Positions 8,068-8,355 of a stretch of 8,355 nt of DNA are shown piece after piece. Position 1 is the first letter of the stretch. Each line of letters starts with the position of its first letter. This DNA is from a virus: the UHGV virus genome UHGV-0366079. One strand, 5' to 3'. Below the pieces are notes generated by a model. That model was not told the DNA's origin. It ran no database searches and saw only the letters and a list, made by a program, of their open reading frames with translations. The translations under genes were made by a program, and so were the position numbers.

Positions 8068-8194
8068 ATGAGTTCAGTAGTTCATTAGTGTTTAAACATT
8101 ACACCAGTGAGCTAGTGAGTTCAAGAGGCTTGGATGATATGAGTTCATGAGCATGTATACTCACTTCAAATATTGCATTGAACGAGCGTAAAAA
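8068..8194. promoter_or_regulatory. Divergent intergenic region between gII and the RHH gene, with iterated TGAGTTCA motifs and candidate promoters
   Basis: TGAGTTCA at 8069-8076, 8116-8123 and 8140-8147, plus partial copy AGTTCA at 8079-8084. Candidate minus-strand promoter for gII: -35 TTGAAC (8124..8119), -10 TGTAAT (8103..8098), 15-nt spacer. Candidate plus-strand -10 TATACT at 8156-8161. Confidence 0.4.
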
Positions 8195-8355
8195 ATGGCA
8201 AAGCGCACGACTTATAACGTGACGGAAGAAAGAAAAATGAAACTAGAACGACTGGCTATAAATGCCAGTGTAAAACTAGGAAAAACAATTACATGGACAG
8301 AGATTTTAGGTTATCTGATTGATAACTACTCTAAAGATGCAGCAGAAGATCTCAT
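8195..8355 (+). CDS. Ribbon-helix-helix (CopG/Arc/ParD-like) DNA-binding protein, 3'-truncated by the window edge
   Basis: ATG 8195 opens MAKRTTYNVTEERKMKLERLAINASVKLGKTITWTEILGYLIDNY..., open to the window end (about 53 codons). Strand-helix-turn-helix pattern with GKTI turn resembles RK2 ParD as recalled. Weak SD. Transcribed divergently from gII. Confidence 0.5.
   Translation, partial: MAKRTTYNVTEERKMKLERLAINASVKLGKTITWTEILGYLIDNYSKDAAEDL

Follow-up and report, generated by a model that had tools for sequence, protein, structure and literature searches.

We report that the iterated 8-mer motifs lying upstream of the replication-initiator gene gII in the viral genome UHGV-0366079 (8355 bp, analysed over its whole length and hereinafter called the window) are probably the operators of a ribbon-helix-helix (RHH) repressor of immunity or lysogeny, which is the predicted product of a small gene transcribed divergently from gII in a filamentous prophage of the CUS-1/YpfPhi type, and which would act by shutting off gII. 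An earlier note, made from the letters of this DNA, had proposed such a repressor/operator arrangement by likeness to the rstR/rstA pair of CTXphi. That proposal is now backed by the placement of the repeats on both predicted promoters, by their conservation in related loci and by their covariation with the N-terminal ribbon of the protein. We read the repeats as operators, and not as iterons of a replication origin, because the same sites also adjoin gII genes whose products are strongly diverged from that of the window.

The 8-mer TGAGTTCA occurs in three exact copies on the + strand within 79 bp (8069-8076, 8116-8123 and 8140-8147), and a partial copy, GTAGTTCA, lies directly against the first of them at 8077-8084. 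These are the three exact copies and the partial one of which the earlier note spoke, and all four are situated, as it held, between gII and the divergent gene. The number of copies of TGAGTTCA expected in the entire window is 0.31, and four copies were reached in none of 200 shuffles. Across 8060-8165 the autocorrelation at lag 8 is 0.47, a value as high as which was seen in none of 5000 shuffles, and the region accordingly displays an 8-bp period, with boxes of the GAGT type forming two arrays termed O1 and O2-O3 (Table 1). A fourth exact copy in the window, on the - strand at 1585-1592, is probably a chance occurrence, even as it could conceivably be a weak distal site near attP; it is located inside orf77 (1451-1684), and a second GAGTT follows it at a distance of 9 nt, not 8.

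The limits of the region carrying the repeats follow from the start of gII, which is almost certainly GTG 8025. This codon has a GAGGA Shine-Dalgarno sequence 7 nt upstream and is the start called by PGAP in the prophage of UM146, and the gII homologues in two of the related loci considered below (L026 and L078) begin with MIDW at the equivalent codon. Two other candidates were rejected: ATG 8069 is out of frame with gII, and GTG 8067, with which the longest open reading frame (ORF) begins, has neither a Shine-Dalgarno sequence nor the support of homologues. With gII starting at 8025, the intergenic region spans 8026-8194 (169 bp), up to the regulator ATG at 8195, and contains all four copies; copy 1 comes to lie 44-51 nt upstream of gII and falls at roughly +13 to +20 of the transcript predicted for it. 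Hence, contrary to the earlier note, none of the copies overlaps the start codon of gII.

The divergent ORF is cut at position 8355 but resumes at position 1, with its stop codon at 20-22, which shows the window to be a circular permutation of the element. The additional sequence beyond 8355, which the earlier note had sought so as to complete this gene, is supplied by reading the window as a circle, and the wrapped translation is a protein of 60 amino acids (aa), MAKRTTYNVTEERKMKLERLAINASVKLGKTITWTEILGYLIDNYSKDAAEDLMSAKQKD. It matches PHROG 2503, a family of unknown function, from end to end (E 3.6e-34), corresponds in UM146 to a 183-nt coding sequence labelled 'hypothetical protein' by PGAP (WP_001335098.1), and recurs unchanged in over 1000 contigs from Salmonella, E. 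coli and Klebsiella. An AlphaFold2 (AF2) model computed with 12 relatives in the alignment (pLDDT 79) shows two helices (residues 11-28 and 34-58) preceded by an extended N-terminus, that is, the beta-alpha-alpha topology of an RHH domain of about 45-50 residues. We also prepared a profile of 49 distant members of the family, drawn from 69 cluster representatives. In this set, ribbon position 7 is hydrophobic in 100% of the members and position 9 in 98%, and positions 4, 6, 8 and 10 are hydrophobic in just 2-18%, i.e. polar, with 8 and 10 being the most variable; such an alternating pattern reads as the classic signature of the ribbon in RHH proteins. The profile aligns with the RHH domain of the partition protein ParG (hhalign probability 76%, E 2.4e-5, covering only ParG residues 33-74) and retrieves ParG at E 0.095 in a profile search of the PDB; the ParG family PF09274 matches 6 of the 49 members, only at E values of 0.05 or above. 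The RHH fold that the earlier note had ascribed to this gene is borne out for the full-length ORF, on which the AF2 topology, the ribbon pattern and the profile alignment with ParG agree, and we take the regulator to be an RHH protein, predicted to form a dimer. Two natural proteins of 129-130 aa, P0077 and P0093, comprise two complete regulator domains in tandem, an arrangement that fits a dimeric unit of the domain. These proteins may be single-chain pseudo-dimers, as in TraY; an AF2 model of P0077 computed without an alignment had an implausible topology (pLDDT 54) and was discarded.

The arrays coincide with promoter-like elements on both strands. O2 covers the -35 element of the predicted gII promoter along with half of its spacer, and the overlap of one copy with a candidate gII -35 noted earlier is recovered as that of copy 2 with TTGAAC. 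In the transcript predicted for gII, O1 covers approximately +1 to +20. Most loci of the family have, at this same promoter position, a cTTG(A/C)A -35 with a TG-type -10 after it. On the opposite strand, the spacer of the predicted regulator promoter (8140-8155) is exactly O3; this promoter is the sole sigma-70-like site returned by the promoter scanner in 7900-8355, and TGTATACT or TATAAT is kept at the same distance in the relatives.

From the above we infer that the protein binds the arrays, that it does so cooperatively, that its effect is repressive and that the promoters are as assigned, and we propose the following mechanism. The ribbon KRTTYNVT at the N-terminus would read 4-bp GAGT/ACTC-like boxes placed every 8 bp, and dimers would bind adjacent boxes cooperatively, in the manner of ParG, omega and MetJ, so as to coat O1 and O2-O3. 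As O2 lies over the -35 and spacer of gII and O1 over the start of its transcript, their occupancy would block gII transcription, and the block would, via gII, also stop the replication and structural operon. As O3 fills the spacer of the regulator promoter, the protein would likewise exert negative autoregulation. One and the same set of sites would combine repression of the replication gene with negative autoregulation, which is the logic of phage immunity regions. The regulator gene and its operators would together constitute a portable cassette, whose specificity would derive from two to three residues on the outward face of the ribbon and from the box that matches them, and which would have recombined with at least four different lineages of replication proteins (Rep).

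Table 1. Features of the gII-regulator region of UHGV-0366079, in window coordinates; arrows give the direction of reading on the - strand
Feature	Position	Strand	Remarks
gII, replication initiator (the regulated gene)	6973..8025	-	Phage_CRI + G2P_X_C; start GTG 8025
Operator array O1	8069..8089	+	TGAGTTCA GTAGTTCA TTAGT; boxes GAGT 8070, TAGT 8078, TAGT 8086, 8 bp apart
Predicted gII promoter	8096..8124	-	-35 TTGAAC (8124->8119), 17-nt spacer, -10 TAATGT (8101->8096)
Alternative gII -10 (predicted)	8106->8098	-	TGG-TGTAAT
Operator array O2-O3	8108..8155	+	six boxes in one 8-bp register, including exact copies 2 and 3: GAGC 8109, GAGT 8117, GAGG 8125, GATG 8133, GAGT 8141, GAGC 8149
Predicted regulator promoter	8134..8161	+	-35 ATGATA (8134-8139), 16-nt spacer, -10 TATACT (8156-8161)
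Regulator gene, 5' part	8195..8355	+	ATG 8195; codons 1-53 plus 2 nt
Regulator gene, 3' end	1..22	+	last 7 codons and TAA stop at 20-22
Two adjacent hairpins	23-38 and 40-68		directly after the regulator stop, outside the repeat region

Three scans of viral contigs, made with three sub-alignments of the family, and one scan of genomes yielded about 35 non-redundant related loci. In all of these a small regulator gene is divergent from a replication gene, and four Rep lineages could be recognised among the latter, namely the window-type pII, the If1-type pII, the IKe/Ff-type pII and RstA. In nearly all the loci the repeats fall into three clusters, located about -125, -80 and -50 relative to the regulator ATG, and each ribbon type has an 8-mer of its own. 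Five of them (L005, L007, L009, L010 and L085) code for regulators that are 60-98% identical, with the ribbon KR(T/A)TYNVT unchanged, and retain three TGAGTTCA/TGAACTCA sites, including the equivalent of O1, at spacings of 47 and 24 bp. The DNA between these sites has diverged and individual 8-mers flip their orientation; the middle site of L007 is a perfect palindrome, TGAACTCATGAGTTCA. When the five loci are aligned, the invariant columns bunch on TGAGTTCAA and TGA..TCATGA. The gII of four of these (L085 was left out of the Rep typing) is of the If1 type and only 25-30% identical to the gII of the window. Reciprocally, in If1-like loci that share with L005 a gII of 85-86% identity, the ribbon is a different one (KRTTMAIV) and so are the repeats (GCATAA or GCATTA). 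As the repeats dissociate from the gII type in both directions, they follow the small protein and not the initiator.

The correspondence between ribbon and repeat recurs throughout the collection. The ribbon TTYNVT is accompanied by TGAGTTCA in the window and in L005, L007, L009 and L010; TTMAIT by ATGCATGT or ATGCATGC in L015 and L016; TTISIS by GTATTCA or TGAATNCA in L018; TSVRVN by CGCATGCA in L026; TASFNIK by TAGGTAAA in L042, L044 and L047; KNLGVP by TTGTGA in L025 and L068; and KSIGIN by TGTGCA in L065. Over 30 loci the mean lag-8 autocorrelation is 0.397, as against 0.296 in shuffles, being higher than the latter in 28 of the 30, with echoes at lags 16 and 24. Among pairs of loci with different Rep types, a 6-mer repeated at least three times is shared by 13 of the 25 pairs in which at least 6 of the 8 ribbon positions are identical, as opposed to 21 of the 434 other such pairs (permutation p < 0.0005).

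This mode of recognition has a close parallel in ParG of TP228, whose ribbon KRVNVNFD resembles KRTTYNVT of the window regulator. ParG binds cooperatively to degenerate ACTC boxes that are 4 bp apart and may stand in direct or inverted orientation; when another ribbon is grafted in, a different box is recognised, and specificity resides in the ribbon alone (PMC3413123). The core GAGT of the window 8-mer is the complement of the ACTC box of ParG. Moreover, the array bound by ParG (the O_F operator/parH centromere of TP228; Zampini and Hayes, PMC3413123) overlaps a promoter and is coated by dimers, as modelled here. The hallmarks of ParG-type recognition, comprising an 8-bp register, orientation flips between relatives and covariation of ribbon and box, are all seen in the sequences of the present family. 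Nevertheless, the relationship between the window regulator and ParG is a weak one, below the Pfam thresholds. Unlike those of ParG, the spacers in the window are not AT-rich (TTCA, CTAG), and the window has three separated sites on two divergent promoters in place of a single continuous array downstream of a -10. The RHH proteins omega of pSM19035 and MetJ of E. coli also act on short tandem repeats, but their repeat sequences and biology differ, with omega controlling plasmid copy number and partition, and MetJ regulating methionine genes with a corepressor; no sequence relationship of either to the window regulator was detectable.

In its layout the locus recalls CTXphi, where RstR is likewise encoded by a small repressor gene divergent from the initiator, with multiple operators in a short intergenic region, and where the repressor sets immunity and, along with its operator block, is an exchangeable, type-specific part of the genome. 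The 169-bp intergenic region of the window has this arrangement, as does every related locus examined. Canonical RstR (of the El Tor, classical and Calcutta types) is a helix-turn-helix protein of about 112 aa that acts as a tetramer on long operators. In contrast to it, the window regulator is a 60-aa RHH protein with arrays of 8-bp boxes, and its partner initiator is an Ff-type pII, not RstA. The regulator does, however, show about 40% identity (tblastn, E 4e-6) to ORFs annotated as rstR in pre-CTX/environmental CTXphi records (KR063268, GQ466611), which are transcribed divergently from rstA and possess repeats of their own, of the GCATGC type. In YpfPhi, YPO2273 occupies the rstR position and has been called homologous to RstR, with the suggestion that it may regulate replication (Derbise and Carniel 2014, PMC4266046). 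The same study states that this role 'awaits experimental demonstration' and describes the intergenic region as one of transcription initiation, with no fold or operator; it also records that cells with a resident YpfPhi are partly protected against superinfection (PMC4266046). Judging by the identity reported between CUS-1 and YpfPhi and by that of the window to the UM146 prophage (both given below), YPO2273 and its CUS-1 counterpart are almost certainly the same gene as the window regulator. Given that YPO2273 was called RstR-like and that the rstR-annotated ORFs are related to the regulator at the above level of identity, the repressor reading agrees with the published proposal.

We considered whether the repeats might instead be iterons of the plus-strand origin bound by the gII initiator, after the Ff model. 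In Ff phages the origin and the gpII-binding repeats do lie in the intergenic region upstream of gII, and the window gII is of the Ff family, with matches to Phage_CRI (E 9e-70) and G2P_X_C (E 2.5e-29). This explanation is nonetheless extremely unlikely: the same TGAGTTCA triplet at the same spacing adjoins the If1-type gII of low identity described above, close relatives of that If1-type gII stand beside other repeats that track the regulator ribbon, and the layout is kept next to RstA-type initiators too. Furthermore, a search of the window for the Ff/IKe nick sequence TTCTTTAATAGTGGACTC, with up to 3 mismatches allowed, gave no match, and in IKe the annotated viral-strand origin is placed beyond the homologous ORF. 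The window-type gII is tracked instead by the pair of hairpins at 23-68, which comprises an inverted repeat with 10/10 complementary positions and a single-stranded DNA fold with z = -4.8, and which is kept, with one compensatory change, in L026, a locus with a window-type gII and a different regulator. By these sequence features the hairpins are a candidate terminator and/or plus-strand origin. As a separate observation, positions 59-75 of the + strand (CACGTTCTTTATTGTG) are similar to the nick region of f1, CACGTTCTTTAATAGTG, and the f1-like CACGTTCTTTA is present at 62-72, but the strand concerned is antisense to gII. An equally improbable proposition is that the regulator is a type II antitoxin of the ParD/CopG kind, with the repeats as its autoregulatory operator and no role in replication control; ParD-like autoregulation, which the earlier note had offered as an option, finds no support. 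The protein is only 60 aa long and ends with helix 2, leaving no C-terminal toxin-binding extension; its stop codon is followed by the two hairpins, and the gene downstream varies among loci (76, 89, 113, 128 or 369 aa) and has no match to a toxin family. The conserved neighbour is the divergent rep gene, whose promoter the arrays overlap besides the regulator's own.

Two further explanations are only slightly better placed, and we regard both as very unlikely. In the first, the regulator would be a centromere-binding protein of the ParG kind, and the arrays would serve as a partition site to stabilise the episomal replicative form, with effects on transcription being secondary. In its favour, among characterised proteins ParG comes closest by sequence profile and binds arrays of the same kind of ACTC boxes with the same 8-bp periodicity, and YpfPhi is an unstable episome in most lineages of Y. 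pestis. However, neither the window nor the related loci code for an ATPase partner of the ParA/ParF type, the regulator does not have the N-terminal tail of about 30 residues seen in ParG, and in every locus the arrays overlie promoter elements; hence, unlike for ParG, no partition role is expected for this regulator that stands without a ParF/ParA partner. Alternatively, the repeats could be sites for a host regulator, such as a RovA/SlyA-type or other nucleoid protein, rather than for a phage protein. RovA has been reported to bind the region of the putative promoter of YPO2274 (the YpfPhi gII), and loss of RovA derepresses phage genes (PMC4266046). Yet the repeats change from locus to locus along with the phage-encoded ribbon, in hosts ranging from Vibrio to Xenorhabdus to E. 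coli, and a host factor would not give such a ribbon-linked pattern, even though such a factor may act alongside the phage protein. A search of the intergenic region for LexA boxes returned no site.

Several points weigh against the RHH repressor as we have put it forward. The AF2 model is that of a monomer, and the two-stranded ribbon itself falls outside it; no Pfam, NCBIfam or PADLOC model matches the regulator, and a Foldseek search with its model returned nothing significant. Since the matches to curated families failed, its membership in the RHH class is founded on the fold and not on a curated sequence model. As for the DNA, the register of O1 is offset by one base from that of O2-O3, and the gII promoter is a reading of weak hexamers (TTGAAC/TAATGT) at which the promoter scanner made no call. 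The regulator gene and the intergenic DNA are adjacent and co-inherited; hence, the correlation between ribbon and repeat would in part reflect common descent and not selection. The searched literature gave no binding, transcription-start or reporter data for the regulator or members of its family. Lastly, because the host RovA acts on the same promoter region in Yersinia (PMC4266046), the phage protein may not be the sole or the main repressor.

The RHH regulator family extends to classical filamentous phages. The earlier note had started from the premise that the region upstream of gII has no divergent gene in Ff phages; that stands for Ff but does not extend to IKe and If1, both of which, classical 'non-temperate' coliphages though they are, have unannotated homologues. 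In IKe (NC_002014) a 65-aa member of the family is encoded on the - strand at 6601-6798, between the viral-strand origin and gII (hhalign probability 95.8%), and TTAAATTAC occurs twice over the annotated gII promoter. The homologue in If1, with 58% identity, lies in what is termed the 'major intergenic region'. There, a 1829-bp element of the IS200/IS605-like type, with tnpA and tnpB (the latter annotated as 'ORF348'), occupies 5311-7139 of the genome (NC_001954), and sits exactly between the regulator start codon (ATG 5310, - strand) and the promoter/operator region. Two If1-like contigs free of this insertion sequence (L012 and L013) are collinear across the junction. As the insertion cuts the regulator off from its promoter, laboratory If1 may be a derepressed regulatory mutant. 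In the Erwinia phage PEar1 there is just a 42-aa remnant with the ribbon and first helix (6432-6560, - strand).

These observations raise the broader prospect that the Inoviridae share a large and as yet unnamed family of ribbon-coded immunity cassettes, of which the window shows one member, a proposal for and against which we consider the case to be evenly balanced. Each cassette would comprise an RHH repressor of 60-70 aa and a fixed scaffold of three operator sites; a change in two to three ribbon residues together with the 4-bp box would create a new immunity type, and the cassettes would have been shuffled among at least four unrelated Rep lineages. If this were true, heteroimmunity groups, such as those of CUS-1, YpfPhi and the environmental CTXphi types, could be read from sequence alone. 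In the searched literature we found no report of the RHH fold, of the box arrays and their coordinates, of the covariation between ribbon and box, or of the independence of the repeats from Rep, nor any mention of the regulator homologues of IKe or If1, or any functional study of YPO2273 or of inovirus RHH repressors.

The mechanism is not new in kind, as both RHH repressors acting on phased short repeats and repressor/operator immunity in filamentous phages are well known. What the analysis adds is a concrete and testable model that names a protein, its boxes (GAGT every 8 bp) and two promoters. We regard the feature described in the earlier note as real and its repressor reading as essentially correct; the interest of the model is moderate and lies in its being concrete and cheap to test. 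The rule connecting ribbon residues with boxes could predict which filamentous phages exclude each other. Further, the module emerges as one exchanged independently of the replication protein; it adds an unannotated gene to the maps of IKe and If1, and extends an immunity module to classical phages that were thought to be devoid of such a gene. Invasive E. coli K1 and pandemic Yersinia pestis harbour CUS-1/YpfPhi prophages, for which a link with the fitness of the host during infection has been described.

The window has the full gene set of a filamentous phage on the - strand, viz. gII, gV, gVIII, gIII, gVI, gI (Zot) and gIV (secretin), and four small genes on the + strand. Prophages in 47 complete E. 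coli genomes match it over its full length at 98-99.6% identity; that of UM146 is 99.3% identical and its insertion adjoins hipA, and in EC5502, where the copies form tandem arrays, the window is collinear in one piece. By sequence, the element is a dif-integrating filamentous prophage of the CUS-1/YpfPhi type, which is known from E. coli O18:K1:H7 and Yersinia pestis, and whose two namesakes are reported to share 99% identity across 7.1 kb that includes the regulation and replication genes (PMC4266046). The suggestion in the earlier note that the element is capable of lysogeny is supported by the E. coli chromosomes that carry it integrated next to dif/hipA. Footprinting with diverged genomic copies from E. 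coli was dropped, as all the copies are at least 99% identical and thus offer no footprinting power. In EC5502 (NZ_CP092647) the region 38464-52792 has 17 places matching the window as tandem prophage copies, in which many phage genes are annotated as frameshifted pseudogenes; these may reflect errors of assembly or decay of the extra copies.

Away from the regulator locus, an inverted dif-like pair with arms at 1316-1331 and 1400-1415 contains GGTGCGCATAATGTA. The arms flank a 24-nt inverted repeat (1333-1356/1369-1392), an arrangement consistent with the attP of forked-hairpin form that has been proposed for YpfPhi and CTXphi. To either side are accessory genes (111-1315 on the + strand and 1451-2110 on the - strand) that vary among otherwise similar prophages, none with a known function. 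Among them, orf142 (111-539) codes for a membrane protein and orf159 for a protein with an N-terminal transmembrane segment; orf91 belongs to the ECs_2282 family of CxxC zinc-binding proteins, with a weak match to the PADLOC model PDC-S64, and the products of orf102 and orf77 also possess CxxC pairs. These accessory genes sit at the positions where CTXphi has ctxAB.

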